A stretch of DNA of 59,534 nt, the filler included, from Basidiobolus ranarum (taxonomy: Eukaryota): assembly GCA_040143965.1 (NCBI GenBank). It is 9 parts of 9 records of this genome, joined end to end, with 100 filler letters (N's around TTAATTAATTAA, not from the genome) between each part and the next. Parts side by side here need not be neighbours in the genome. Positions count along the whole stretch, not along the records: positions 33,187 to 39,710 come from JASJQH010001303.1; 8 more parts are not named here. One strand, written 5' to 3'. The position numbers and the translations under genes were made by a program. The notes under the pieces are model-generated. The model had not been told where the DNA came from, did no database searches, and saw only the letters and a list, made by a program, of their open reading frames with translations. Numbering within the stretch: the stretch's first letter is position 1; every line of letters begins with the position of its first letter. Positions 1,906 through 57,244 of this stretch are shown in pieces.

Positions 1906-4454
1906 TTAGGTCTGGCTCATGAATTGGTTGATATAGGAACTCCATTCTTCGAAATTAAAGTCCATTTGAAGTGGATTTAATGTTGGGGCGTTGCTTATGT
2001 TTTGCTCGAATTGCTCTACACATGGGTCAAAAGTATTTGAGGCTTCAACCTGCGTAGGAGAAACTTCATCGTCTGGAAACAACGGAATCTCAGAGTTGGG
2101 AAATAGGCTAGCGGTTTGAGGCATGCTTCTTTGAGGGTCGATAGGGAAGACCGGGTTTGAGTAGATGAGATTCGGATTATTTCCTAACTTCGTGTTCGTT
2201 AAGGAAGGCGATTGGTACAATGTAGGAACAAAATTCTCTTGCCCACCAAGTTTGGAATATGCTGGTTGTTCGAATTCTCTTACTGGTGGCTGCGATAGCG
2301 GTGATTCGTATGACATGTATGAGCATGGTGAATTCACAGATCTCATTGACGCTATTTCCTGTGACCGCACGTTGTTCACCCGAGAGGCAGTAATGAACTC
2401 AGATGGTGATGGTGTAGGAGACAATGCAGCATTTGGAGAAAGTACTGATGACAGTGACGGAGAGGGCGAATTTGAAGGATTGTTATTGAATAGAACCCTA
2501 TCGGCAATTTCTTCTGGAATGATAATTAACGACTCTGAATCGTGCCGTTGTATATGTCGACTGAGTGAGTTGGAAGTAAACGAGATATTTGGAGAATTGT
2601 ATAGCTCGGGTAACGATGGGGAATCCTCCAAATTGATGTTTTTGTAGGATTTGATAAGGTCATCAAGTAAAGCTAAGCAACGTTTGGCATCCAAATAGTT
2701 TTTGCTAGAGTGTTGCAAGCACTCATATCCTGCTTTCAAATTTGCTTTGGAAATTCGTGCCAATTCTGGATCGTCTGATACGCTATTGATCAAATGCACA
2801 CTACACGCAGTAAAGATTGGCCCGGTTTGCATTTGAATGGAATACTGGCGGTTTTGTACGTAGTAGTAAGCACTGTAGATTATCGCACTAGCCGCTTTAG
2901 CACATATTAGCTGAGAAGGATGTGTTACCGAAGCTTTACGACCAGTTTTGGGTATAAAAGGGCGATTCAAAATAATCAAAGTGTAACAATGCAAAAAGCA
3001 GAGAGTTACAGAGTAACAATCATTTTGTTGACTATTGAAATCATACTTGAACTCACTGGGTAATGTAGCTTCCCATTGGTTCAGAGCCTTGTTCAATTCT
3101 CGTAAGCTATTCTTGGTCTTACCCTGCGATGTGTTTTCTGCAGTGTATATTTCTCGTAGTATTCGTCCCATAATATGAGATAAACGAATGCTTAAAATAT
3201 AACATTTAACAGATCGTTGAGTATAACCAAATTCTTTGATATCCATCGACGTTTCTTTTGCCAGATTTTCTGGAAGTAGTGGAAGTGATGTATTGCAATC
3301 AGACTCTTGGATCGCCAGTGGTCTACCTAGAAATGAGCTAAGTCCTCTGTCGAGAAGCATACAATTCCACCAAAGAAATTTTCTTTTTTCGCGCTCAAGG
3401 GGGTCCAGCTTTTGAGAATTCAAGGTTCGATGGAGTCCAAGCTCTTGTGCAAGTCGTATCGCCATTCCTAGATACATCCACCCATTCTGGGGATGCAGAC
3501 TTAGTAGAATCAATGCTTGAACAAGCCCGATTGATGGAACAGAGATAAGCCTGTCCAGTAAATTTTTGGCCCTGGCTTGGAATACTCGCGACGCAAAGAA
3601 TGCCTCCTCAGGACTAGGGAATAAGGCTCCACTGGGGCTATGGAATGCAGCTATCGTGAGAATGCAGTTATACAAAAGTTCTGACAAATCATCTGAAACG
3701 ATGAGACTTTTGTCGAGGCGACCTAGGGGGAAAATAGGAAAGCCACAGTTGATGTATTCGAAAAAGTAGTTTAGCAGTGCTTCACGAAGTTCTAATGGTG
3801 GGAACCCGGGACCAAGTGAGAGTGGGTTTTGTCGGAAGAGAGGCTCTTCACTGATCAATTTAAGAACATTTTGCAGTCGCCCCTGTTTGTAAAAAGATCC
3901 GCCATCAAGTAGATAAAACCCGGAGCTGCTTCCAACATATGAAAAGTATTTTGGATCTTCAAGGGCAAGTTTACCGAAATCATCTTCCACTGAATCGTCA
4001 CTCTTCTGTGGAATGAATAAAATAAATGTATGGCATGTGTAAGTACTAGTGCAAACAATTTACAAGTAACCAATAAATGGGCTTTTATAAATACCTCATT
4101 ACTATCATCAGCTAACGATTGTTCTATTGAATGAAATTCGTCAACAACATCTGAGGGTAAAGTGGTATTTCGTTTGGCAAGGTTAGAGAGCACTGACTCC
4201 AAGCGTTCTAAACGATCTTCCAATGCTTTTGGGTAACTTGGCTGTGGGCCCCTTTTTTTCTGCTTCTCAAGGTATGTACACTCATATCCATATGAAACAC
4301 AATTTGAACAAGCAGGCTTTTCGTTGTCACATTTTACTTTCTTTTTACGACAAGCATCACAAGCACGTGAAGCTCTTGGCTTTTTAGTTAAGGCCTCTAT
4401 AGAGTTTGTACCGGTACCATTGCTTTCTTGATGGTCATCAGCAAACGAGGACAT
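1906..4454 (-). CDS. Zn(II)2Cys6 fungal transcription factor with Fungal_trans middle-homology domain (2 exons, about 819 aa)
   Basis: RACDACRKKKVKCD...CSNC...CTY binuclear cluster in exon 1 (4454-4095). A GT..AG intron at 4094-4006 joins in frame to exon 2 containing GMAIRLAQELGLHR...LDRGLSSFLGRP. Confidence 0.95.
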
Positions 4455-6548: not shown

Positions 6549-6648
6549 NNNNNNNNNNNNNNNNNNNNNNNNNNNNNNNNNNNNNNNNNNNNTTAATTAA
6601 TTAANNNNNNNNNNNNNNNNNNNNNNNNNNNNNNNNNNNNNNNNNNNN
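6549..6648. other. Artificial contig linker (N44-TTAATTAATTAA-N44)
   Basis: Six-frame stop spacer flanked by Ns. Confidence 0.99.
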
Positions 6649-6835: not shown

Positions 6836-7139
6836 TGTTCAGCAATGCCTAAGCATTTATTTAGTTATATATAGCTTTGAATTTAGTTTTCCTATATTTG
6901 ACCAAGACATCACTTACTGTTCTCAAAAGGGATATACTCAGAAGTTCTCAGATATACAGATTTTCAAACTTGTGCTAGAAGCCCCAAACTCTGCAAACAT
7001 GATTCTGGGACCTTCCTTAACATAATCTACACGCTTGTTTGCTTATATCTTAACAAGAGTATAAACGTCAACTTTCTACTCAATAGATCAGTAAATAAAA
7101 GCCACCAAATTCTTCTAGGTTTCCAAACCACTTCCAACA
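6836..7139 (+). mobile_element. Diverged copia LTR (family A)
   Basis: Reverse-complement match to the LTRs at 39932-40259 and 49854-50182 (gaagttctcagatata, ttttcaaacttgtgctagaagccccaaact, ccaaaccacttccaaca). Confidence 0.8.
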
Positions 7140-7660
7140 AGCTCCCAAAATACTTTGACAAACTCTAGCTGCATGTCAATGAGAGAAATATTCCATTTAA
7201 AATGGCGATCATCACCCTAAGTCATACTTGAAATATCAAAGTCATCCAAATTAACCCGAAAATAGCACAATTCTTTTGCTCAACAGGAACTTTGTTGAGA
7301 TAAGCATAAGTATTTGCAATTTAATGGCCTTCGTCATAAGCCTGCTTAAGCTCAAGTGACTGTGATAGAATTCAGTTAGAAAAACTTCATTGTATTCAGA
7401 TGCGTATCAATTACTGAAATCTAAATTCGAACTGTGCACATACTTCTGTCGTATATTGCTTAACCCGAGCTCATTTTTCGACACGTTGCTAAAGAAATTG
7501 GGCTGTCATATCTAAATTTAGCATGTAACGATCAGAAATCCATGTTTATTCAAAGTAATAAAAATTCCATAGAAATCAATATATTTAATTGGAGCTCATC
7601 CTAACTAAACGAACCGAGTATAACCACTAGTCCAGCTGGGATGCAAAATCCATCAGCTAC

Positions 7661-13194: not shown

Positions 13195-13294
13195 NNNNNN
13201 NNNNNNNNNNNNNNNNNNNNNNNNNNNNNNNNNNNNNNTTAATTAATTAANNNNNNNNNNNNNNNNNNNNNNNNNNNNNNNNNNNNNNNNNNNN
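13195..13294. other. Artificial contig linker
   Basis: N44-TTAATTAATTAA-N44. Confidence 0.99.
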
Positions 13295-15099
13295 CCATAT
13301 CATCAAGTGTTCCTATCTCCTGAAAACAGCAAAATCTTTGATGCAGCCCTCGCAGAATCCAATACTACATTTTCAAGCCTCATGAGTCGAGAACCTGCGA
13401 TAGCTACACAATCAGGCGATCAGCAAACGTTACAGAAGCGTCGAATCACTACCAATTTGAAAATAGACGGACTATGGGAATTATCAAAGAGTGCCACTCG
13501 TGAAGGAGTGGAAACATTGCATTTCCTTCATAATCGACATAAAATGGCCATCACCAGACAGTTGAAAGTGATACCCATCTTTGATCAGTCATTGTCCAGG
13601 ATTCTTCAACAACTCAACGAACATTTGGAAATCTCCCGTATGAACCTTAGTTCAACAATTGAAAATTTGACTCGCCATGGCATTGACCAACTACTAGATA
13701 ATGAGAGATCGTCCGACCCCAACAGGACACCCGCAAGGTTCTCCAAAGAAATCAAGAAAGTACTGATTGACTCCTTCGTCAGTAAATCTCCATATCCCAG
13801 TGAAGCTGAGAAGGAAAGACTCAGTAGGTTATGTAAATTGGACTATAAACAGGTGAGTGTTTGGTTCGCAAACAAGCGTATGCGTACTAAAATTCACTCG
13901 CCTTCATCGAATTCCCATATCTACTCAAGTGGCAAGTCCCTCCAACCAAAACTCTCATCTACTAAGAATCCCAAGGCGGAAGATTACTTCTCACCAGCCT
14001 TCAAAACAGAGAATGCTCTTTCAGATGTATCTTCGCAACACAGTTCGTTTTCTGGATCTCCATTCACTAGTTCCTCCATGGATAGCGTAAGGGGAGACTC
14101 TTTCAGTCCTGATAATACCCCAAGTCCATATTTTAGAGGAGACGCCGAATCTCACCCACCGAAGAGTCCTCATATTTCTTTACACAAGTTCAAAGTAAAT
14201 TCTGAATGTGAATCAATCTCCACTCCCACAAAATCGTATGAACGCACACCATGGACCACATCAAATATGTCAGTTAACTCGCCCGAAAGTTGGAAATTTA
14301 GGAACAGGTTGGCCTCTTCATCAAGTATTAAGACACCGCTTGCTTACTTGGATTGTTTATCAAGCACCGACGAGACAGATATACTTGAATCTATGTCTGG
14401 GGATGATTATGCCAATATGAAATGTAGAGATGGGTATACATCAAATACAAATATCCTAGGAGTTACTGGGGTTATGATTGAAGACGAAAACACAACTAGT
14501 CCACGAATGTCGGGAGAATGTAGGAAAGCGAGATCAGTAAACCGACAGGAACAAATGAATTCGGATAATGTTTTATCCGATGCGGAGGATGTATCCAAAT
14601 TACCAGTGTTTCCAGAAACATTGGATGACATCGTATACAAGTATGGTATTTCTCAGGGCCAAAGTGAGGTTGAAATTCAGGCTTCAAAATCATATCTCAT
14701 GAAGTCGACCAACTCGTTGCCTGGTCAAGATTCCCCAGAATTGGGTATGTATTTGTATACCAGCGCTTTTGAGAGATAGTGAATGCTTACATATTGACTT
14801 TTACAGATTCTCATTATGACGATTTAGAACAATGCATCAAGGGGGATGGCAAGTCCGCGGCGGATAATACTATCCTGTTGGATATCTTAGGGGATGGTTA
14901 TACCCCAAAGCATTCAAGTGTAACACCAGAGATATCGCGGAAATTTGAGTTCGATATATCATCCGATTGGGGATCGCGATCTCCCAAGGAGATTCGGGAT
15001 TATTCGGTATACTTCAAAACGATCTTAAAACCTGAACAACTCACAGTCGATCCCAATATTCTTGATTTAAAAAGAAAATCAGAGAAGCCAGAGGTTTAA
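13295..15099 (+). CDS. Homeodomain transcription factor, 5' truncated by gap, one 3' intron
   Basis: RFSKEIKKVLIDSFVSKSPYPSEAEKERLSRLCKLDYKQVSVWFANKRMR; intron GTATGT..TTACAG at 14745-14806 joins in frame to DSHYDD...KPEV* (15099). Confidence 0.88.
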
Positions 15100-19833: not shown

Positions 19834-19933
19834 NNNNNNNNNNNNNNNNNNNNNNNNNNNNNNNNNNNNNNNNNNNNTTAATTAATTAANNNNNNNNNNN
19901 NNNNNNNNNNNNNNNNNNNNNNNNNNNNNNNNN
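19834..19933. other. Artificial contig linker
   Basis: N44-TTAATTAATTAA-N44. Confidence 0.99.
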
Positions 19934-26461: not shown

Positions 26462-26561
26462 NNNNNNNNNNNNNNNNNNNNNNNNNNNNNNNNNNNNNNN
26501 NNNNNTTAATTAATTAANNNNNNNNNNNNNNNNNNNNNNNNNNNNNNNNNNNNNNNNNNNN
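26462..26561. other. Artificial contig linker
   Basis: N44-TTAATTAATTAA-N44. Confidence 0.99.
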
Positions 26562-33086: not shown

Positions 33087-33186
33087 NNNNNNNNNNNNNN
33101 NNNNNNNNNNNNNNNNNNNNNNNNNNNNNNTTAATTAATTAANNNNNNNNNNNNNNNNNNNNNNNNNNNNNNNNNNNNNNNNNNNN
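33087..33186. other. Artificial contig linker
   Basis: N44-TTAATTAATTAA-N44. Confidence 0.99.
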
Positions 33187-34820
33187 TAATGAAGTAATGT
33201 TCAATATCCATATGTTTGCTTCTATTATAAAACATGGGATTTTTAGCTAATTTGATACAACTTGGATTATCATGAAATATTGTAGTTGGCAAATTTTGGA
33301 AATAACCCAAATCTGTTAAGAGTTTTCTTAACCATATTGCTTCTTTTGTTGCGTCACAGGCAGCCATGTATTCAGCTTCTGTTGTTGAAAGTGCTACAAT
33401 AGGTTGCTTCTTTGAATTCCAAGAAATAGTTCCATTACAGCAAAGAAATAAGTACCCTGTTGCAGACCTCCTATCTTCAATATCTCTTCCCCAATCTGCA
33501 TCTGAATATCCCATCAGATCATAGTTGGATCCAGAATATATGTATCTTAAGCACATATCTCCAGTGCCTTTCAAATATCTGAAAATCCACTTAACTGCTA
33601 TGATTTGATCAGAAACATAATTTTGAAGATATTGGCTTATAATTTTCAATGAATATGCAATATCTGGCCATGTTCCAACCATGATATACATCAAATTACC
33701 AATCAAACATTGATAAGGAAATTTCTGGCTTTTATTTGAATCCAAAAATGTCTGATTTGAGCCATTTTTGGTCAAGTTAAGATTTGCCTCCATTGGGTCA
33801 GATGCTGGATTATATTCTTCCATAGTAAACTTCTTTAGTATATCTAGGATATACTTAGACTGGCTTAAAGTAATTGTTTAGGTAGTTCTCTCTATCTTAA
33901 ATTGGATTCCACGATAGTACATCAGTTCACCAAGATCAGTCATTTGGAATTTGGCAGATAAGCTGGATTTGGTTTTCTGCAAAGTCTTCAAGTCATTGGT
34001 TGCTATAATAAGGGCATCTACATATAAGGCTGATAGAACTGGGTTTTTCTTATCTGGCCAGAAGTGAATACTATAGTCAGCATTACTCTTTTGGAATTTG
34101 AGTGTTGCAAAATAAGGGTCTATCTTGCTATTCCAAGCTCTTGGAGATTGTTTTAGCCACAGAGTGCTTTCTGGAGACTGCAAACTTTTTTAAGGTTTTA
34201 TGGGCCCCCAAATCTGTCTGACTGGTCCATATAGATCTCCTCAGCAAACTCATCATTCAAAAAAGCAGCTTTCACATCCATCTGATGTGTAATACACTGA
34301 TGTTCAGCTGAAGTTGCTAATATCAATCTAATTGAATTAAACTTTGCTACAGGAGCAAAAGTTTCTGTATAATCTATTCCTGGTGCTTGGGAATAGACTT
34401 TGGCTACTAGTCTAGTCTTGTACCTTTCTATATTGCCATCAGAGTTGTATTTAACTTTAAATATCCATTGGCAGCCAATATATTTTTTATCAACAGTTAA
34501 GTTGGTTAAAATCCTAGTTTGATTATCAATCAGAGCCTGGTACTCATCAGCCATTGCAGCTCTCCAAAATTTCATGTGAGGGCCATTCAGGGCCCGTTTT
34601 ACAGTCTGGGGCTAATGTACTTGAGCTGTGCAGGACTCATTGATATATTAATCAGGGCAATTTCTGATCTGATTTGATCTCCTGGTTTGGTGTAAAGGTA
34701 ATACAACTACTGGCATTATGTTGGGCACTTCAGTTGGCAAAGGTTTGGTTGGAGGGTCCACAGGAATGCTATTTTCTTCATTGTTTTGGTTTGAATCAAT
34801 TTCATCATCTGAGATGATTT
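33187..34820 (-). mobile_element. Degraded Ty1/copia pol fragment (RT-RNase H), same family as 49854-52930
   Basis: ERYKTRLVAK, QMDVKAAFLN, LKQSPRAW, YSDADW, ALSTTEAEY, KHMDI; frameshifts and stops; interrupted at 34821 by another element. Confidence 0.93.
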
Positions 34821-35198
34821 TGTGGAAGTTTATTGTCTTTATCATATTTGTTATCTCTATCTTTATACATCTATCTATTACACATATCAACTAAAAGTTA
34901 GCTTTGAATACTTAGTCAAATATCACTTAACTGCAAATTGGAACATATATTATATATATACGTGAACAATGTGAGAATTAGCAATTTCATATTGGAAATT
35001 TCAAACTTGTCCAAATTGCCCCAAAGATAGCTCATTATACTCCCACAAATGTTCTGAACACAACCCCAGTGGTAGATTTCTGTATTTCCACCAAAATGTG
35101 TAAACACTTTATTTCTGGACAATAAATAATTATCTCACAATGCTATTCACAACTCCACTTTTCTAAAGTTCCTCCAAACAGCCCATATCTTCCCAATA
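34821..35198 (+). repeat. 5' LTR of copia family C
   Basis: TGTGGAAG...CCCAATA, homologous to 36708-37083, immediately followed by the PBS and gag. Confidence 0.88.
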
Positions 35199-35210
35199 GG
35201 CTATGAGCCC
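35199..35210 (+). promoter_or_regulatory. Primer-binding site of the half-tRNAiMet type
   Basis: GGCTATGAGCCC directly after the LTR, close to GGTTATGAGCCC, the complement of the initiator tRNA-Met anticodon arm used by Drosophila copia and yeast Ty5. Confidence 0.75.
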
Positions 35211-36707
35211 TGTGTTCTAACCTTTATATCATGACCAAAACCACTACTACCACTCTTATTGACTCAAGTGTTGAAAAGCTTGATGCAGAAAATTACAATT
35301 TCTGGAAGTTCCAGAGGCAAATCACGCTGGAAGACAGGGAACATTGGGACGTAGTCTCTGGAGATGAAAAGAAACCTTCTCACCCTTCTTTATTGGAAGC
35401 TTAAAAGAACAGAGACAAGAAGGGCTTTATTGTCATGTATCAAAGCTTGAAGGACTGACAACTTGTGAATATTCAATATGCAAAGACTTCCCATTGAGCT
35501 TGGACTATATTGGAAGAGTTTGATCAAGCAAAGAGCCTTGCTAATAGACTCTTTCTCAGACAAAAATTCTTCAATATAAAGATGGAAAAGTCTGAAAGCA
35601 CAATAACTCATATTGCAAATGTGAGATCTTTGGCAAAACAACTGGAAAATATTGTGGCAACTTTACAGGAAAAATACGTCACTATGACTCTTCTAAGTAG
35701 TCTACCAGAACCGTATTCAAACATGGTCACAGCTTTGGAAGCAAGATCTGACAAGTTGTCTTTAGAGTTTGCAATGGCAAGGCTGATGTAGCAACACCTC
35801 AGAAGTAAGCATTTGGAAAAAGAATCGGAGGAAGTGATTGTTTTAGAACTGGAAAATGTAGCTTTGGCAAGCACAAAGGTTACAAAAGAAGGAAACCAGG
35901 TTTATGCTCTGGTTGTAACAAACCAGGACATCAGTTAAAGATTGCAAATCAAGAAATTACAACAGAAATGAGAAGTCAGAGCAAGCTAATCAGGTTTTAA
36001 CTAAAGAGGAAGTATTATTCATTTCTGCCCTATCAATGGCCTCTGAACAAGACTGTAGGCTGCTGTATATTGATTCTGGAGCCTCTCAACATATCTCTGA
36101 TCTTAAAAACTGGTTCAAGACACTTAAAACTAACACAAACAAGAAAGTTTATATGGGAGATGACTGGCCGCTAGAAGATCTGGGAGTGGGAGAAGTTAAA
36201 GTGGATCTTGGGGGTATCTCTGGAGACATGTATTTGACACTAAAAAATGTGCTTTATGTTCCTGGGATAGCAAAAATATGTTATCAGTGAGTGAAGCTAC
36301 ATCTGAGGGATATAGCTTTAATTTTGATAAAATGGCTGTACAATCAGGGATCAAAAGCAATTACATAGCTTCTGGAGGTAAGCAAAAAAATGTGTATAAA
36401 CTTCATTGTAATGGGCCAATATATGAATATGCTAATACTGCCACAGCTGCAGAGATAGACTGGAATATCTGGCATAGGAAATTGGGACATCTAGGAGCTG
36501 AAAATATATGATATTTAATCAAAAACAAGATGGTTTTGGGACTAAATTTTGCAATTCCACCAGATCTGGAGCTATGTGAAGGTTGCCTGTGTGGTAGGTA
36601 ACACAGACAGCCATTTGTGGGTGCAGTACACTCAGATCTGTGTAGCTTTAATTTTGATCAGAAAGGCTGTGCAATCGGTCATCAAAAAGGGAATTACATA
36701 GCTTCTG

Positions 36708-37083
36708 TGTTGAAGTTTATTGTCTTTATCATATTTGTTATCTCTATCTTTATACACCTAACTATCTTATATATCACCTATATGTTAGTCAACATTACTT
36801 AGTCAAATATCCCTTTGCTAAAATTGAAACATATATTGTATATATATGTGAATAATGTGAGAATTAGCAATTCATATTGGAAATTTTGAACTTGTCCAAA
36901 TTACCCCAAAGATACCTCATTTTACTCCCACAGATGTTCTGAACACAACTCCAGTGTTAGTTTTCTGTATTTCCACCAAAACGTAAAAATACTTTATTTC
37001 TGGACAATAAAAAATTATCTCACAAAACTATTCACAACTCCACTTTTCTAAAGTTCCTCCAAACAGCCCATATTTTCCCAATA
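36708..37083 (+). mobile_element. Solo LTR of family C with perfect 5-bp TSD TTCTG
   Basis: TGTTGAAG...CCCAATA flanked by TTCTG at 36703-36707 and 37084-37088. Confidence 0.9.
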
Positions 37084-37146
37084 TTCTGGATCTAAGAAAA
37101 ATAGCTTGTATAAACTTCATTATATTAGGCCAATATATGAATAAGT

Positions 37147-37427
37147 TGTTGAATATCTGGTGACTTGTGGTACAAGCTGTAATTCCCAAAGGGGAAAATA
37201 TGGAGTATGGTGACTGCATCTAACACAAAGTCTAAGGCCAATCAGTTGCTTGTATAGCAGCAATGCCAAAGTACCATACATTGACAGACTAGGTTAAGAT
37301 TCCCTAGCAATATAGGCATACCATACAAGGACTGGTAGCTCAGTGGTTAGAGGACCTTGCTAGAGTGAAGGAGGTCCCAGGTTCAATTCCTGGCCAGACC
37401 AAAATTTGTCCCTAAATAATTTCAATA
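37147..37427 (+). mobile_element. 281-bp LTR-like element containing a tRNA-like cassette (solo LTR, TSD TAAGT/CAAGT)
   Basis: Termini TGTTGAA...TTCAATA; flanks 37142-37146 TAAGT and 37428-37432 CAAGT; empty-site paralog at about 36421-36440; further copies at 39551 and 53031. Confidence 0.85.
37329..37401 (+). tRNA. tRNA-like sequence inside the LTR (nominal anticodon AGA, short variable loop; probably not a functional tRNA)
   Basis: GGACTGG TA GCTC AGTGGTTA GAGG A CCTTG CTAGAGT GAAGG AGGTC CCAGG TTCAATT CCTGG CCAGACC A; A-box and B-box present; mismatches in the acceptor, D and anticodon stems. Confidence 0.7.
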
Positions 37428-39550
37428 CAAGTCAATACTGCCACAGCTGAAGAGCTTGACTGGAAAGTCTGGCATAGGAGATTGGGTCACTTAGGAGCTG
37501 AAAATATGAGAAATTTAATCACAAACAATATGGTTTGGGGACTAAATTTTGTAATTCCATTGGATCTGGAGCTATGTGAAGGTTACCTATAGGGTAGGCA
37601 ACATACACAGCCATTTGTAGGCTTTGGAATGACTAAACTGATCATATATTGGGCCTGATACACTCATATCTATGTGGCCCAATGCAGACAAAATATGTAG
37701 ATGGAAAAAGGTAATTTATAACCTTGATTGATGATGAGACAAAGTATACTTGAGTGTACATTCTGGCCAGTGTGGATGAAGCCTTGGATACCTTCAAAAA
37801 ATTCAAGGCAATGGTGGAGACTGAAACAGGTCCAAAGATTAAGATTATCTGTACTGATGATGGAGGGGAATATTCCTCAAAACTCTTCCCCGACTTCTGC
37901 TCAACACATGGGATAATGCAACAGGCCACAGTGCCATATTCCCCACAGCAGAATGCTGTAGTAGAACATGCAAACATATCAATCATGGAAAAGGCAAGAT
38001 CAATGCTTTATGAGCAAGATTTACCAAAACAGTTCTGGGCTGAATTGGTTGCAATTGCAGTAAATATTAGGAACAGATGTACTCCTAGGTTGCTGTTGGC
38101 TATCACAACTTATCAAGCTTATTTGGAAGTAAACTTGGTGTGGCTAATCTCAGAGTTTTTGGAAGTACTACATATGTAAAGATTCCATACCAGAAGAGAT
38201 CAAAATAAGACCAAAAAAGCCAGAAATGTCTCTTTTTGGGATATTGTGATGGAACAATAGGGTACAGACTATGTGACACTGAAAATAAGAGGCTCGTCAA
38301 GCCAAGGGATGTGCAATTTGCAGAAGAAAAAATTTCAATCAAAACACACCAGGATCAAGAAAAACAACCAAAATTGATGAAAATTCTTCTTTCACTCACC
38401 AGATCCTGATCAGTGAGAAAAGCATTGAAAATCTCTCACCTGCAGTGTCCTCAACCAAGCCTGAGGTGGTTTCATTGCCTAAATTGGTACCAGAAGCTGT
38501 TGTGCAATTTTCCCATCTAAGGAGATCCAATTGGATGAGAACTCTGCCTGATTACTACTCTCACACTAGCCAAAAGGAGCCTTGTGCTAATTTAGCCTCT
38601 TCTGATGAACTCAAATCAGTACAGGAGGATATGGAGAGTCCCAAAACAAAGTTTTGGAGTGTTGCAATGGCAGAGGAGTATCAGTCACTCATATATAACC
38701 AAACTTGGACTTTGGATAAGTTACCTGATGACAGAAAATTAATTGGATGCAAATGGGTATTTAAAGTTAAACAGCAAGCTGATGGATCTGTAGAAAGATA
38801 TAAAGCAAGAATTGTGGCTAAAGGATACACTCAAATGGAAGGAGTGGACTCCAATTAAACATTTGCTCCTGTATCAAAGTTTGATTCCATCAGAACCATA
38901 ATAGCAGTAGCAGTAAAACACAGCTTAAAAATCCTTCATATGGATGTTAAAACTGCTTTATTGAATGGGGACTTGAAAGAGGATTTATTCATGGAACAAC
39001 CAGATATATTTGTGCATCCTGAGCACCCTGAGGATATGTGTAAGCTACAAAAAGCACTTTATGGACTTAAACAATCACCCAGGGCCTGGTACACAAAGTT
39101 AGACACAAACTTGGAATCACTAGATTTCCAAATGAGTAAGGAGGATTTTGGGATCTACTTTAAAAAGATAAAGACAGTAAGGTGATATTTGCCTTATATG
39201 TATATGATCAGATTATAGCTACCAATAATGTTGAAGCTCTGAGGAACACCAAAAGCAATCTATCAGTCCAATTCAAGATGACCAATATGGATATACTTCT
39301 CTATTTTTGGGCCTGCAGATCCATAAAGATAGATTGAGCAAATCTAGTACTTTGAATCAATCTAAATACATCTCTGACACTCTAAGATGTTACAGGATGG
39401 AGAATTGTAAGCCAGAAGTAACTCACATGGATCCAAGTGTGAAACTAGTCAAAAATCCCGTCATAAATCATGAAAATTGGCCAAATTTGGCTCAAATAAG
39501 TGTTTTGAAAGCCCTGAGTTCCCTTATAAATCTATGGTAGGTAGTTTGAT

Positions 39551-39710
39551 TGTTGAAAGTCTGGTGACTTGTGGTACAAGCAGTAATTCCCAAAGAGGAA
39601 AATATGGAGTATGCTGACTGCATCTGAACACAAAGTCTAAAGCCAATCAGTTGCTTGTATAGCGGAAATGCCAAAGTACCATACATTGACAGACTAGGTA
39701 AAGGTTCCCT
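39551..39710 (+). mobile_element. Second copy of the tRNA-bearing LTR (5' part, cut by gap), inserted in copia pol
   Basis: TGTTGAAAGTCTGGTGACTTGTGGTACAAGC... matches 37147 onward; interrupts the SMVGSL RT/RNase H tether sequence. Confidence 0.85.
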
Positions 39711-39810
39711 NNNNNNNNNNNNNNNNNNNNNNNNNNNNNNNNNNNNNNNNNNNNTTAATTAATTAANNNNNNNNNNNNNNNNNNNNNNNNNNNNNNNNNN
39801 NNNNNNNNNN
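39711..39810. other. Artificial contig linker
   Basis: N44-TTAATTAATTAA-N44. Confidence 0.99.
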
Positions 39811-39931
39811 TTAACTCTTGAACATTGAATTAGCAATTTGTCTTTAGCATTAAGACAAATTGTGTTAAAGGCATTTTGTTCTTTTTTAACCTGAAGTAAT
39901 ACTTTGGTTCCTGTTAAAGTATTTGAGAGCT

Positions 39932-40259
39932 TGTTGGAAGTGGTTTGGAGAATTAGAGGAATTGGTGGCTTTCACTTATTGATTTATTGAGTAGAAAGTT
40001 GATATTTATAATTTTGTCAAGATGTAAGCAAACTAACTTGTAGAATGTGTTAAGGAAGGTCCCAGGAACATGTGTGCAAAGTTTGGGGCTTCTAGCACAA
40101 GTTTGAAAAATCTATATATCTGAGAACTTCTAAGTTGGTCAAAATATTCCAAGTAAATTCCAATTGAGAATAATGGGTAATATCTTAGTTCAATATAAGA
40201 TAACTAAGTACTAAGCTATATATGACTATATAGGTGTTTAGGCAATGCTAATTTCAACA
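39932..40259 (-). mobile_element. Copia LTR (family A), apparently solo
   Basis: TGTTG...CAACA termini; high similarity to 49854-50182. Confidence 0.88.
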
Positions 40260-46323: not shown

Positions 46324-46423
46324 NNNNNNNNNNNNNNNNNNNNNNNNNNNNNNNNNNNNNNNNNNNNTTAATTAATTAANNNNNNNNNNNNNNNNNNNNN
46401 NNNNNNNNNNNNNNNNNNNNNNN
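46324..46423. other. Artificial contig linker
   Basis: N44-TTAATTAATTAA-N44. Confidence 0.99.
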
Positions 46424-49326: not shown

Positions 49327-49853
49327 TAGTCTGATCTGGAATGTAGAGTGGGATGAATGTGTATATAGTCTGTTACGGTACCTATTTTACTAACTATATC
49401 AACTGTAACTGTTTCAACTTTTTCCATATTATTATAAAAGAAAACACACTTTACAAGGTAAGTTTCAATAACAGTTCATTATTATTAAATTCAAATTGCA
49501 AATAGTATAGGATAAACCTTCTCAATATTTATTGAAATATCTTAATTTGTTTCATTATCATTGAACTCCATAGAAACTAAGGCTCTATTTTGCTTTATAA
49601 TACTTCCATTTTGTACAATGTCTTATTAATCCTTTAGATTTTTTAGTTGCTATTTAATTTATACTTCTATATAGATCCTGTTAATGATTCTGTTGCATAA
49701 ATGGAGAGCTAACTAACTCCAACTAAGAAATAAGATTTTATATATACTCTTATAATACTATTTGACATACTTAAAAAGTGAGTGGGGCTAGGTGGTGAGG
49801 ATTTTGTTGGTATCATATCCAGATACTTCATGCTGATGAAGAATTTGGAAGCC

Positions 49854-50182
49854 TGTTGGAAGTGGTTTGGAGAATTAGAGGAATTGGTGGTTTTTGCTCA
49901 TTGATTTATTGAGTAGAAAGTTGACATTTATAGTCTTATCAAGATGTAAGCAAACTAACATACAGAGTGTGTTAAGGAAGGTCCCAGGAAAATGTGCACA
50001 AAGTTTGGGGCTTCTATCACAAGTTTGAAAAATCTATATATATGAGAACTTCTAAGTTGGTAAAAATATTCTAAGTAAATTCCAATTGCAAATAATGGGT
50101 AATATCTTGGTTAAATATAAGATAACTAAGTACTAAGCATATATATGACTATATTGGTGTTTAGGCAATGCTAATTTCAACA
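49854..50182 (-). repeat. 3' LTR of copia family A
   Basis: TGTTGAAATT...TTCCAACA on the minus strand, directly after the PPT. Confidence 0.9.
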
Positions 50183-52930
50183 CTCCCTCAACTTAATAGT
50201 CATATAAATTAATCCTAATAAAGGTCTAAATTTCTCAAATTTCTGTCTAGCTAATGGTTTGGTTAATATATCAGCAATCATGTCTTCAGTACAACAACAA
50301 GTTAAATCAATAAGCTTACTCTCTATGGTGTCTCTAATGAAGTGATGCTTAATATCTATATGTTTGCTTCTATTATGAAGTATGGGATTTTTAGCTAATT
50401 TGATACAACTTTGATTATCTTGAAATATTGTAGTTGGTGAATTTTGAGAACAATCTAAATCTGTTAGGAGTTTTCTTAACCATATTGCTTCTTTTGTTGC
50501 TTCACAGGCAGCCATATATTCTGCTTCTGTTGTTGAAAGTGCTACAGTAGGTTGTTTCTTTGAATTCCAAGAAATAGCTCCATTACAGCAAAGAAATAAG
50601 TATCCTGTTGTAGATCTCCTGTCTTCAATATCTCTTCCCCAATTTGCATCTGAATATCCCATCAGATCAAAGTTTGATCCAGAATATATGTACTTTAATC
50701 ACAGATCCAAAGTATCTTTCAAATATCTGAAAATTCACTTAACTGCTATGATTTGATCAGATCCATAATTTAGAAGATATTGGCACATAACTCCCACAGA
50801 ATATGCAATATATGGCCATGTTTCAACCATGATATAGCTCTAAGTACCAACCATAGATTGATAAGGAAATTTCTGGCTTGCATATGGATCAATACACATC
50901 CAATTTGAGGCATTTTTGGTCAAGTTAAGATTTGTATCCATTGGGGTAGATACTGGATTATATTCTTCCATTTTAAACTTCCTTAGTATATCTAGCATAT
51001 ACTTAGACAGGTTTAAAGTTATTCTTTTGGTAGTTCCAGCTATCTTAATTTAGATTCTAAGATAGTATGTTAGTTCACTAAGAGCAGTCATTTTCAATTA
51101 GGCAGATAAGCTGGATTTGGTTTTCTTCAAAGTCTTCAAGTCATTGGTTGCTATAATAAGGTCATCCACATATAAGGCTAATAAAACTGGGTTTGTCTTA
51201 TCTGGCATGAAGTAGATACTATAGTCAGCATTACTCTTTTGGAATTTGAGTGATTGCAAAAAAGCATCTATCTTGCTATTCTAAGCTGTTGCAGATTGTT
51301 TTAAGTCACATAGTGTTTTCCAGAGTCTGCAAACTTCTTTAGGATTTTCTGGGTCCACAAACCCATCTGGCTGGTCCATATAGATCTCCTCAGCAAGCTA
51401 ACCATTCAACAAAGCATTTTTAACAACCATTTAATGTATAATAAACTGATATTTAGCTTAAATTGCTAAAATCAATCTGATTGAAATAAACTTTCCTATG
51501 GGAGCAAAAGTTGCTGTATAATCTATTCCTGGTGTTTGGGAGTAGCCTTTAGCTACTAGCCTAGCCTTGTATCTTTGTGTATTGCTTTCAGTGTTGTATG
51601 TAACTTTAAACACCTATTGGCAGTCATTGGATTTTTGATCATCAGGTAAGTGGGTTAAAATCCATGTTTGGCTAACAATTAAAGCCTGGTTCTCATCAGC
51701 CATTGCAGTTCTCCAAAATTTTGTGTGAGGGCCATTGAGGGCTTCTTTTATAGTCTGGGTTCATGTATTGGAGCTGTGTAGGTGTAGGCCCAATTTTGGG
51801 AATCATTGATGCAGCAATTGGGGCTGTTTCTGATCCAATTTGATCTCCTGGTTTGGGATAAAGGCACAACAACTTCTGGCATTTTATTGGGCACTTCAGT
51901 AGGCAAAATTTTGGTTGAAGTGTCCACAGGAATGCTATTTTTTTATTGTTTTGGTTTAAATCAATTCAAGTGATTGGATCAGCAGAAAATTGATTATTGT
52001 CATCATCTGTGGTCATTGTGGGTGAGAATATTTCACTTACATTAAACAAAACATCCCTGGACTTGATTAACTTGGAAATATTGGTATTGTAGAGTCTGTC
52101 AGGCTTAGTTTGAGTACAATAACACTAAAATATGCATTTCTTATTTTATGGATCAAATTTAGACTGATTTTTGGTCATAATTTTGACATCAGCTATGAAT
52201 CCATGGATCCTCAAATTTTTTGCATCAGATTTAACTACAAACCAAGCTTGATATAGTGTAGAGTTAGACGGACTTCTAGTAAAACTCCTATTCTTCAGAT
52301 ATACAGTTGTAGAAACAGATTCCACTCAAAAGTTATGAGATAAATCTTATGCATTTTTCATAGATCTTGCCATCTTTATTATAGTCCTGTTAACACTTTT
52401 GGCAACTCCTTTTTGTTGAGGTGAATAGGGCAGTTGTTTCTTGCTTCATTTCATGAACTTTGCAAAAGTGCTTAAATGGTGTTGAAGTATATTCTCCACT
52501 ATTATCAGTACATATTTTCTTGATTTTAGTTCCAATTTCAGTCTCCACAGGTGTTTAAAATCTCTAAAGACAGAGAGAGCTTCTTCTTTCTTTCCATAAA
52601 GTAGACAAAAGTGTATCTTGTATAGTAATCAATAAATGTATTGAACTATTTTTTTTTGCCTAAAGACAAAATTTGCGTAGGTCCACACAAATCTGAATAA
52701 ATTAGATCCATTTTTTGGACAGATTTGATTAAACCAGAGCTTGTGAATGGTTTCCTGGCTTGTTTTCCATATAAACAACCCTCACAAATTTCCATTTTGG
52801 TTGGGGGGTTAATTTGAATTCCAGAAATTAGGCAATTTTTGATCATTTTGCTCAAATAATCAAATCCAATATGGCCAAATCTCTTATGCCATAATTGAAT
52901 AGTTTCTTGATTGGAATAACTTATATTTAC
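49854..52930 (-). mobile_element. Degraded Ty1/copia element (family A): integrase-RT-RNase H, PPT, 3' LTR
   Basis: CEGCLYGKQAR, SDLCGP, TDNSGEY, YSDANW, ALSTTEAEY, KHIDIKHHF, ADILTKPL; ORF ends LREC* across PPT GAGGGAG (50189-50183) into the LTR. Confidence 0.95.
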
Positions 52931-53030
52931 NNNNNNNNNNNNNNNNNNNNNNNNNNNNNNNNNNNNNNNNNNNNTTAATTAATTAANNNNNNNNNNNNNN
53001 NNNNNNNNNNNNNNNNNNNNNNNNNNNNNN
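52931..53030. other. Artificial contig linker
   Basis: N44-TTAATTAATTAA-N44. Confidence 0.99.
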
Positions 53031-53305
53031 AGTCTGGTGACTTGTGGTACAAGCAGTAATTTCCAAAGAGGAAAATATGGAGTATGGTGACTGCATCTGA
53101 ACACAAAGTCTAAGGCCAATCAGTTGCTTGTATAGCTGAAACGCCAAAGTACCATACATTGACAGACTAGGTTAAGGTTCCCTAGCAATATAGGTATAGC
53201 ATACAAGGACTGGTAGCTCAGTGGTTAGAGCACCTTGCTAGAGTGAAGGAGGTCCCAGGTTCAAAACCTGGCCAGACCAATATTTCTCTGTTAATAATTT
53301 CAATA
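53031..53305 (+). mobile_element. Third copy of the tRNA-bearing LTR (first few bases in gap)
   Basis: Colinear with 37154-37427; ends AATAATTTCAATA. Confidence 0.85.
53207..53279 (+). tRNA. tRNA-like sequence inside the LTR (nominal anticodon AGA)
   Basis: GGACTGG TA GCTC AGTGGTTA GAGC A CCTTG CTAGAGT GAAGG AGGTC CCAGG TTCAAAA CCTGG CCAGACC A; D and T stems intact. Confidence 0.72.
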
Positions 53306-53737: not shown

Positions 53738-53959
53738 TGTAGAATGTGTTAAGGAAGGTCCCAGGAACATGTGTGCAAAGTATGGGGCTTCTAGCACAAG
53801 TTTGAAAAAATCTATATATCTGAGAACTTCTAAGTTGGTGTCAATATTTTGAGTAAATTCCAATTGAGAATGATGGATAGTATCTTAGTTAATTACAAGA
53901 TAACTAAGTACTAAGCTATATATGACTATACAGGTGCTTAGGCAATGCTAATTTCAACA
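53738..53959 (-). mobile_element. Partial copia LTR (family A)
   Basis: tgtagaatgtgttaaggaaggtcccagg...ggcaatgctaatttcaaca matches 40039-40259. Confidence 0.88.
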
Positions 53960-54339
53960 TTTTTCTGGTTCTCTGACAGTTTTCCACTAGTTTGATCAGG
54001 ATCCAATCCTGATTATCCAAAAATGATTTTTGTGAGGTAAGGTAAGGCTACTTTGCAATGAAAGGTAGTTAAGTAGGAAATCCAAGCATGCAAATCCCAG
54101 CCCCTTAATGTGCAAAGCCAACTAGAAAGCAAATCTTCAAGACTACTCACCAGGATTAAATGCAAAAATACAGAGCCTGCTTGTGCTACTACTTCAGCAT
54201 TAATATTACACCAACTTGGAAATATGAAATATTTCTGTGGTGGTAATTAGTAAATTGGGACAAGTAGAATTTCCATTAGTATGCCACTATTAATATATGG
54301 CTATTGTAACTCTCATTAATTACATAAAAGTGCATGTTA

Positions 54340-55430: not shown

Positions 55431-55888
55431 CTGGGGTCTAATTGCACCTTTGTTGAATCTGTTAACTCCCTATTGCTATATCCCAGATCACAACCATGCT
55501 GGCCAAATTTGGTTTCGTATAACATGGGCGGCTAATTTCGGATAGCAGTGGTGACACTTCGGTTAATAACTACAAATTAACGCTCCTATTGACTACCCTC
55601 GCATACCGCCAGGTGGGATTCTAGTCCAAATCCTATATATCAGGTTATGTTACGGTTGAATTTACCCGGCTGATTGAAAGGTTTAAACCTAGTGGTGATA
55701 CACCAATACACCATGAAGAATGCTGAGATAATAGTAGCACTTCGGCTAATCTATGCATTGAAAAATTGAAAGTTGGGATTTAATCTTCTTTTATTTGTGT
55801 CGTACTAAGCTTGATATCAGCCACTCGTAAAACACTAAACATGACATAAATAAGCAATGAAGAGCCAACCCTTCTCACCAACTTCAAT

Positions 55889-57244
55889 ATGCAGCTTACA
55901 AACTCTGCCATCTCAGCTAAGGGTTTACTCCTAGTACTCCCTTCTATCCTTCTCTTGACTTCATCGGTAACCGCCAAGTCCTTCCCTCTTAATGATGGTG
56001 TCAACCTTCGTGCTGGTCCAGGAACTACCTATCCCGTGGTAGGCTCTTTGAAAGCTGGCTCCTACGTAGATGTTGTATGCCAAGAAGCTGGCCAATCTGT
56101 CAATGGCTATAACATCTGGGACAAGCTTTCAGATGGCAAATGGGTCTTTGACAAATACGTTGAAACCGGTACAAAATTTGTATCTGGAATTCCAGGATGC
56201 TCCGAAACTGGTGGTTCTAACAATGGCAATACATTCCCTATCAATGATAATGGAGTACGGGTCCGTTCTGGCCCTGGAACCAGCTTCTCACAGGTAGGCA
56301 CTTTGAACAAAGGTGACAAAGTAACAATCCAATGCCAAGGTACTGGCGAGTCTGTCAATGGATACAATGTCTGGGACAAACTCACTAACGGCAATTGGGT
56401 ATTTGACAAGTACGTCGAAACCGGTGGCAAATATGTATCTGGTGTACCTAAATGTGATGGAGGTAATGGTAACGGTGGCAATAATGGTGGTGATAAGACC
56501 TTCCCCATCAATGACAATGGTGTCCGCGTTCGTTCTGGGCCAGGAACTAGCTATTCTCAAGTAGGTACTTTGAACAAAGGTGATAAAGTAACCATCCAAT
56601 GTCAAGGTACTGGAGAGTCAGTCAATGGATACAATGTCTGGGATAAGCTTACTAATGGCAACTGGGTTTTCGATAAATACGTCGAGACCGGTAGTCAGTA
56701 CGTCGCTGGTATCCCCAAATGTGAGGGCGGTGATAATGGCAATGGTAACGGTAACGGTGGGAATAACGGCAATGGAGGGTCCAATAATGGCCGTATTAAC
56801 CAGGCTGGATTGGATTTGGTCAAGAGTTTTGAAGGCTGGTTTCCCAATTTCTATATTGACCCGGTAGGCATCAAAACTATCGGCTATGGTCATGCCTGTC
56901 ACTCTGATCCTACTGGATGTGCCAACATCCGTGCCCCCTTATCTGTCGCTCAAGGTGAAGATTTGCTACGTCGCGATATGGCAGAGTTCGAGAAGTGTGT
57001 TAGCGGGCTTATCTCAACCTCTCTTACTTCAAACCAATTTTCAGCTCTAGTATCATTCTCGTTCAATGTTGGTTGTGGTGCTCTCCGTAACTCTGATATG
57101 CGTAGATTTATCAATCAAGGGAACAACGGTGCGGCAGCTGCAGAATTTGGACTCTGGGTACGTGGTGGAGGAAAGGTTCTTCCTGGTCTAGTTAGAAGAC
57201 GTAAGTCGGAGCGTGATTTATTCTGTTCGGGCATTTCATGCTGA
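55889..57244 (+). CDS. Secreted GH24 (phage/T4-type) lysozyme with three tandem SH3b-like cell-wall-binding domains
   Basis: Signal peptide; three repeats of V(N/R)(L/V)R(A/S)GPGT..VG.L..G..V...CQ..G.SVNGYN.WDKL..G.WVFDKYVETG; Gly/Asn linkers; catalytic E-x8-D-x5-T in FEGWFPNFYIDPVGIKTIGYGH; QFSALVSFSFNVG; LPGLVRRRKSE; intronless. Confidence 0.95.
   Translation: MQLTNSAISAKGLLLVLPSILLLTSSVTAKSFPLNDGVNLRAGPGTTYPVVGSLKAGSYVDVVCQEAGQSVNGYNIWDKLSDGKWVFDKYVETGTKFVSGIPGCSETGGSNNGNTFPINDNGVRVRSGPGTSFSQVGTLNKGDKVTIQCQGTGESVNGYNVWDKLTNGNWVFDKYVETGGKYVSGVPKCDGGNGNGGNNGGDKTFPINDNGVRVRSGPGTSYSQVGTLNKGDKVTIQCQGTGESVNGYNVWDKLTNGNWVFDKYVETGSQYVAGIPKCEGGDNGNGNGNGGNNGNGGSNNGRINQAGLDLVKSFEGWFPNFYIDPVGIKTIGYGHACHSDPTGCANIRAPLSVAQGEDLLRRDMAEFEKCVSGLISTSLTSNQFSALVSFSFNVGCGALRNSDMRRFINQGNNGAAAAEFGLWVRGGGKVLPGLVRRRKSERDLFCSGISC

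Follow-up and report, generated by a model that had tools for sequence, protein, structure and literature searches.

In this study we describe a 281-bp tRNA-bearing unit, residing within a decayed copia retrotransposon of the fungus Basidiobolus ranarum (assembly GCA_040143965.1), which with a probability of about 0.72 is a solo long terminal repeat (LTR) of a non-autonomous, copia-dependent element of the Helenus type, i.e. a terminal-repeat retrotransposon in miniature (TRIM) with a tRNA-derived RNA polymerase III (Pol III) promoter. The unit is most suitably placed, by its architecture, as a new family within the already described Helenus/TRIMp3 kind, from a new fungal phylum. The window, i.e. 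the whole stretch of DNA that was analysed, comprises 59,534 bases with linkers (58.7 kb of contig sequence) and is made up of nine contigs of 6,504-6,548 bp each, ordered by length. The contigs were joined artificially, and therefore neighbours in the window are not neighbours in the genome. Any feature reaching a linker is truncated there.

The 281-bp unit is a precise insertion into the coding part of the copia element. The pre-integrase region of this element is tandemly doubled (segment A, 36313-36640, and segment B, from position 36643, approximately 85% identity), and segment B carries two insertions absent from segment A. The original prediction, made from the sequence of the window, had pointed to an empty counterpart of the insertion site, 720 bp upstream of the unit, and both a MAFFT alignment and BLAST comparison bear this out. 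In the three-way alignment the paralogous segment is colinear across the insertion point, and the two pentamers that flank the unit, TAAGT and CAAGT, align with one and the same set of five paralog columns, as predicted by a 5-bp target-site duplication. The left flank of the unit is 83% identical to the paralog over 60 bp and the right flank 85.6% identical over 188 bp (BLAST).

The predicted termini of the unit were found exactly where they had been placed. TGTTGAA opens both copies in which the 5' end is preserved and TTCAATA closes both copies in which the 3' end is preserved (see below for the number of copies), the reverse complement of the latter (TATTGAA) matching the 5' end at six of seven positions. 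The base lying immediately outside is also common to the two copies showing it, T before TGTTGAA and C after TTCAATA, and each end of the unit is for this reason uncertain by 1 nt. The predicted duplication is likewise present, in one copy, its length (3, 4 or 5 bp) depending on where the ends are set.

The host of the insertion provides an LTR that is bona fide, as proved by the primer-binding site (PBS) and coding interior that accompany it. The copia element lies on the plus strand of contig 33187-39710 (window positions 34821-39550) and is decayed, with stops and frameshifts. Its domains are in the expected order (Retrotran_gag_2, Pol_BBD, two copies of gag_pre-integrs, rve and RVT_2; Pfam); no 3' LTR of this element was found in the contig. 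A second copy of its LTR, inserted as a solo LTR, has TTCTG on either side (36703-36707 and 37084-37088), a perfect duplication of 5 bp. The empty site is at 36370-36374, and the BLAST segments on its two sides overlap in segment A by exactly those 5 bp. The tRNA-bearing unit is located 63 bp beyond this solo LTR, and there are three nested LTR insertions in this one copia element. The unit and the solo copia LTR have the same terminal heptamer (TGTTGAA opens the latter at 36708) and duplications of equal length, and the last five bases, CAATA, are common to the unit and both copies of the copia LTR. Beyond the ends, BLAST revealed no similarity between the unit and the copia LTR. Another repeat, of 1.6 kb (33187-34801 and 50335-51966, 84.8% identical), carries a copia RVT_2 domain on the minus strand; it represents either another copia copy or a second family, truncated by the contig start.

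The second component of the unit is a cloverleaf of 73 nt, identified by two programs (ARAGORN and Rfam) in both of the copies that cover this region, with Rfam tRNA scores of 49.7 bits (E 1.1e-07) in copy 1 and 55.2 bits in copy 3, against a gathering score of 29. In agreement with the prediction, it contains an A box and a B box and is separated from the 3' end of the unit by 26 bp. The A box was judged against the generally known consensus and against the motif "TRGCY ... YGG" given by Kojima (2024; PMC10886601). Both boxes are intact in both copies, despite an overall divergence of 7%. The first run of four or more T residues (T4) past the cloverleaf occurs only after 146 nt in copy 1 and 216 nt in copy 3, in each case beyond the unit, so that the absence of such a run after the cloverleaf, also noted in the prediction, was confirmed.

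It is well known that eukaryotic tRNA-Ser has a long variable arm; in a genuine tRNA-Ser gene the stems are, in addition, paired throughout, and a Pol III terminator follows at a short distance. The cloverleaf of the unit, which has a serine anticodon, has a variable loop of 5 nt, the stem mismatches A3.A70 and G31.G39 in both copies (and G10.G25 in copy 1 only), and the distant T4 runs mentioned above. Since the class I shape, the serine anticodon and the two conserved mismatches make a working tRNA unlikely, the cloverleaf is most likely a promoter. Kojima holds the same view of the majority of Helenus cloverleaves, namely that they are not working tRNAs (PMC10886601; this and the following statements on that paper refer to the portions of its text, tables and consensus file that were consulted).

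BLASTN of the 281-mer against the window identified three copies of the unit and no further ones. The predicted number of copies thus stood, but only one of them is complete, the remaining two being cut at contig joins, and because copy 1 alone is complete the evidence for the duplication comes from a single copy. Copy 1 is 93.1% identical to copy 2 over 160 bp and 93.4% identical to copy 3 over 273 bp, while copies 2 and 3 are 96.1% identical over 153 bp. The flanks of copies 2 and 3 are unrelated to those of copy 1, and the three copies are old, independent insertions. Two other arrangements were considered and rejected: copies 2 and 3 are not a single locus split by the assembler, given that they differ at 6 of the 153 overlapping positions, and copies 1 and 2 (2.4 kb apart, on the same strand) are not the LTR pair of one element, because the copia sequence left of copy 1 resumes on its right, as revealed by the paralog and by the order gag_pre-integrs, rve, RVT_2. 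With two of the three copies at contig ends, their number in 58.7 kb of unrelated contigs suggests (by extrapolation from these three) a high-copy repeat that breaks the assembly. The coordinates of all these features are collected in Table 1.

Table 1. Features of the tRNA-bearing unit, its copies and its copia host in the window
Feature	Position	Strand	Remarks
tRNA-bearing unit, copy 1	37147..37427	+	complete, 281 bp; exact insertion relative to paralog 36421-36440
tRNA-bearing unit, copy 2	39551..39710	+	element positions 1-160, cut by contig end; sits in copia reverse transcriptase region, RVT_2 upstream
tRNA-bearing unit, copy 3	53031..53305	+	element positions 8-281, cut by contig start; right flank CTAGC
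Proposed U3 (unique 3' region), copy 1	~37147-37328	+	proposed R/U5 (repeat and unique 5' region) runs from the tRNA-like start to the unit end
5' terminal heptamer TGTTGAA	37147..37153	+	also in copy 2 (39551-39557)
3' terminal heptamer TTCAATA	37421..37427	+	also in copy 3 (53299-53305)
Left target-site duplication TAAGT	37142..37146	+	aligns to same five empty-paralog columns as right pentamer
Right target-site duplication CAAGT	37428..37432	+	matches left pentamer at 4/5 positions
Empty site in paralogous copia segment	36421..36440	+	atatgaa-tatgc-taatactg; pentamer TATGC at 36428-36432
tRNA-like cloverleaf, copy 1	37329..37401	+	73 nt, class I shape, anticodon AGA; ARAGORN and Rfam RF00005
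tRNA-like cloverleaf, copy 3	53207-53279	+	73 nt, anticodon AGA; ARAGORN and Rfam
Pol III A box TAGCTCAGTGG	37336..37346	+	tRNA positions 8-18; identical in copy 3
Pol III B box GGTTCAATTCC	37380..37390	+	tRNA positions 52-62; copy 3 has GGTTCAAAACC; GGTTCAA in both
Copia 5' LTR, TGTGGAAG...CCCAATA	34821..35198	+	88.6% identical to 36708-37083; ends TGTGGAA...CAATA
Copia PBS GGCTATGAGCCCTG	35199..35212	+	directly after 5' LTR
Solo copia LTR, TGTTGAAG...CCCAATA	36708..37083	+	ends TGTTGAA...CAATA; 88.6% identical to 34821-35198 (BLAST)
Linkers N44-TTAATTAATTAA-N44 (n=8)	6549-6648, 13195-13294, 19834-19933, 26462-26561, 33087-33186, 39711-39810, 46324-46423, 52931-53030		

The nearest known relatives of the unit in structure are the Helenus elements (TRIMp3), TRIMs with a tRNA-derived sequence in their LTRs, whose existence, mentioned in the original prediction, is documented by Kojima (2024; PMC10886601). 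Full-length Helenus elements (311-1263 bp) consist of two LTRs around a short non-coding interior with a PBS and a polypurine tract (PPT), some families having been named from solo LTRs alone, and their conserved boxes read TRGCY...YGG (A) and GGTTC (B). The fungal families number 113 in Pucciniales, with a few others from Agaricus, Coprinopsis and Amylostereum, all the fungal table rows examined being Basidiomycota. In these rows the LTRs are 106-284 bp long, and every target-site duplication is of 5 bp, the length reported for fungal Helenus. Most of the fungal PBSs are complementary to a tRNA's anticodon loop, dominantly tRNA-iMet's, many internal portions begin with ggttatgagccc, and it is from the similarity of the PBSs that fungal Helenus elements are thought to be mobilised by copia. 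It has been proposed that Helenus originated by insertion of a short interspersed nuclear element (SINE) into an LTR (PMC10886601).

The unit resembles the fungal Helenus LTRs in several respects. Like those examined, it opens with TGTTG (or, in some Helenus LTRs, a close variant of it), and its two heptamers are those of LTR-1_PGr and LTR-1_PSt, which start with tgttgaag and finish with ttcaata. Its length falls inside the published range, its duplication is of 5 bp, and its cassette lies near the 3' end of the LTR, at positions 183-255 of 281, as compared with 147-234 of 274 bp in Helenus-4_PGr and 156-227 of 246 in Helenus-5_PGr. The defining tRNA-derived sequence with boxes A and B was found inside the unit in both copies covering the region, and LTR-type termini with a short fixed duplication (matching at four of five positions) in the only complete copy. 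The type predicted for its cloverleaf, tRNA-Ser-AGA, is among the predicted tRNA types that are inflated by Helenus in rusts (PMC10886601). The genomic context is also of the copia type, and the PBS of the local copia, GGCTATGAGCCCTG, differs at only one of 12 positions from ggttatgagccc, a string which, to judge from the text of the same paper, may represent a PBS of the iMet anticodon-loop type. The original idea of a Helenus-like LTR with a tRNA-type Pol III cassette is therefore supported by layout, length and duplication. Mobilisation by a copia-type integrase, proposed at the same time, would be in keeping with the ends of the local copia LTR, the anticodon-loop-type PBS and the perfect 5-bp duplication of the solo LTR. 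The local copia is a candidate for the type of autonomous partner.

There are also differences. The host of the unit is B. ranarum, whereas among fungi the hosts described by Kojima belong to Pucciniales or are one of three Agaricomycetes; a T4 run follows the cloverleaf in many rust LTRs (inspected by eye) but not in the unit; and a copy of the unit with two LTRs is absent from the window. The screen performed by Kojima was seeded from Repbase LTRs and widened only to related genomes, and the text of PMC10886601, in the portions consulted, makes no mention of Basidiobolus, Zoopagomycota, Mucoromycota or Ascomycota. Later papers naming Helenus, as far as they were seen, only cite it, and within the full-text literature searched we found no report of tRNA-bearing LTR elements in Basidiobolus or in early-diverging fungi.

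The relationship to the published families was also assessed at the nucleotide level, by looking up 24 words of 10-19 nt from the unit in the consensus FASTA file of PMC10886601 (DataS1), where words straddling the 70-letter line ends are missed. Of these, 22 were absent, including all 14 words from the U3 region and the word spanning the boundary between U3 and the tRNA-like part. The two words present are generic for tRNAs: agctcagtggttag, found in 20 places, and the T-arm 16-mer gaggtcccaggttcaa, found in four LTRs (Helenus-2_MLP, -4_CroRib, -16_CroRib and -1B_MyGa). No match to a catalogued family emerged from this file, which favours the earlier suggestion of a possibly new family. Since no U3 word is held in common, the unit belongs to Helenus by architecture only; Helenus is, however, defined by structure and not by homology, and the missing words consequently bear on the status of a new family and not on the kind of element.

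Cassandra, a plant TRIM, resembles the unit in that it is a non-autonomous LTR element and each of its LTRs contains a small-RNA promoter of the Pol III type (PMC10886601), but its LTR carries 5S rRNA sequence where the unit carries a tRNA-like sequence. Searches with Rfam revealed no 5S rRNA match in the window, and for the element they gave a tRNA only.

Several observations speak against the assignment to a Helenus-type TRIM. A second LTR, a PBS past the 3' end and a PPT before the 5' end were found beside none of the three copies in the window; copy 1 has copia coding sequence on either side and copy 2 has it on the left, and the right flank of copy 3 contains no PBS-like string. Since no two-LTR copy with PBS and PPT is present in the window, the TRIM status of the element is putative. 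The scan for PBS-type strings beside LTR ends recovered only that of copia itself, and it is a weak scan, as with the mismatches allowed at least one match also occurred in 58 of 100 shuffles. The duplication, known from one complete copy in which four of five positions match, allows a reading of anywhere from 3 to 5 bp, and the unit ends in TA instead of the canonical CA. Its U3 has none of 14 words in common with the published Helenus consensus sequences, and the folding energies of the cloverleaves are no better than those of shuffled controls (z -0.35 and -0.86). Finally, 22-mers from U3 and from the T arm gave no matches (0 each) in metagenome contigs, so that no copies were found outside the window. 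A protein-level search with a 53-aa reading frame spanning U3, aimed at open reading frames (ORFs) mis-called in other copies, yielded no candidate, and BLAST against a phage collection yielded no match.

Taking into account the missing interior, it could be argued that the unit is the LTR of a larger retrotransposon (autonomous, or several kb in length), transcribed by RNA polymerase II and bearing a tRNA or SINE fragment as a mere passenger. No short interior is visible in the window, copy 2, truncated where its contig stops, may have served a longer element as its 5' LTR, and many Repbase LTRs hold tRNA-like pieces although only some of them are classed as TRIMs (PMC10886601). We nevertheless regard such an origin as unlikely: the A and B boxes have remained intact in both copies in spite of 7% divergence, the cloverleaf is placed near the 3' end as in the published Helenus LTRs, there is no coding interior beside any copy, and the unit differs from the LTR of the one copia in the window for which LTRs are present.

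Considerably less probable is that the unit is not an LTR at all, but either a tRNA-derived SINE or a miniature DNA transposon whose short ends are inverted and which makes a 5-bp duplication. Its ends do form an imperfect 7-bp inverted repeat, with a single duplication seen, and, similarly to elements of the SINE2 type, it is short, multicopy and equipped with a tRNA-derived internal Pol III promoter. The tRNA heads of SINEs are 5'-terminal. This arrangement, also outlined in PMC10886601, differs from that of the unit, in which the tRNA-like part is confined to the 3' third (positions 183-255) and which has LTR-type ends with a fixed short duplication; its 3' end, ...AATAATTTCAATA, has no A-rich or simple-repeat tail. 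Moreover, its sharp ends are of the same kind as those of the local copia LTR, which precedes a PBS. The refuting case envisaged in the original prediction, namely a real multicopy tRNA gene with a conserved upstream flank (here taken to have spread by segmental duplication), is close to being refuted itself. The cloverleaf is indeed scored well above threshold by both ARAGORN and Rfam, but a tRNA gene with its flank would not account for a precise 281-bp insertion with a duplication, in a copia frame that is uninterrupted in the paralog, nor for the unrelated flanks of the other two copies; in addition, the combination of a serine anticodon with a class I cloverleaf of 73 nt departs from the canonical tRNA-Ser of eukaryotes, both copies retain the stem mismatches, and no terminator occurs within 146 nt.

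If the unit is the solo LTR of a Helenus-type element, its mobility may be envisaged as follows. The internal A and B boxes would recruit TFIIIC and Pol III, with transcription starting at approximately position 183 of the LTR. As the remaining 26 bp contain no T4 run, the polymerase would be expected to read out of the 5' LTR, across a short interior (PBS ... PPT) and into the 3' LTR, and the resulting RNA would possess a terminal redundancy beginning at the cloverleaf. Proteins of a copia family could package this RNA and reverse-transcribe it in trans, and the copia integrase would recognise the TGTTGAA...CAATA ends and generate a 5-bp duplication. Subsequent recombination between the two LTRs would leave solo LTRs, of which copy 1 is presumably an example.

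A broader proposal, to which we would give somewhat less than even odds, is that a Helenus-like TRIMp3 lineage arose independently in Basidiobolus, i.e. outside Dikarya, as a high-copy, assembly-breaking repeat that seeds false tRNA-Ser(AGA) calls and whose terminator-less cassette yields a full template for retrotransposition. If this is true, fungi would have invented LTR elements driven by Pol III repeatedly, and such elements would not be a speciality of rusts. The range of Helenus/TRIMp3, at present Pucciniales plus a few Agaricomycetes, would come to include a fungus outside Dikarya, which would support its repeated origin wherever copia elements meet tRNA-like promoters. There are also practical consequences: standard tools call each copy a tRNA-Ser(AGA) gene, and tRNA counts of Basidiobolus genomes will be inflated unless the LTRs are masked, while the repeat appears to fragment the assembly. 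With regard to mechanism, the missing T4 run makes the unit a tidy case for the question of how the RNA of a Pol III-transcribed LTR element gains terminal redundancy.

Repeat families in common connect five of the nine contigs (BLAST). A repeat family of approximately 350 bp occurs at 39911-40259, 49833-50182 and 53738-53962 on the plus strand and at 6841-7149 on the minus strand, with 75-92% identity; its members have the 3' end ...GCTAATTTCAACA and are possibly another LTR. Rfam detected no tRNA-like part in this family, and a sub-threshold Rfam scan of the other LTR families of the window revealed no decayed tRNA-like parts.

Among the genes of the window, an ORF of 717 aa (1909-4059, minus strand), in the first contig, is 100% identical to a B. 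ranarum protein at NCBI, and fungal Zn2Cys6 transcription-factor domains are also present (Pfam). Together with the B. ranarum paralog of a protein encoded beside copy 3 (see below), this identity shows that the source is indeed B. ranarum, an early-diverging fungus; a rust as host was considered and rejected. An ORF on the plus strand (13295-14776), open at the contig start, encodes a Homeobox_KN/TALE homeodomain (Pfam E ~1e-11). The contig with copy 3 contains a further plus-strand ORF (55850-57241) that encodes a GH24 "phage lysozyme" domain together with three SH3 domains of bacterial type and includes an internal tandem repeat (56077-56496 versus 56332-56766). Its top matches are B. ranarum paralogs (88% and 55%), followed by proteins of Glomeromycotina, Kickxellales, Pseudogymnoascus and springtails, and it looks like one of the eukaryotic GH24 muramidases, a known family that is likely to have come from bacteria or phages.

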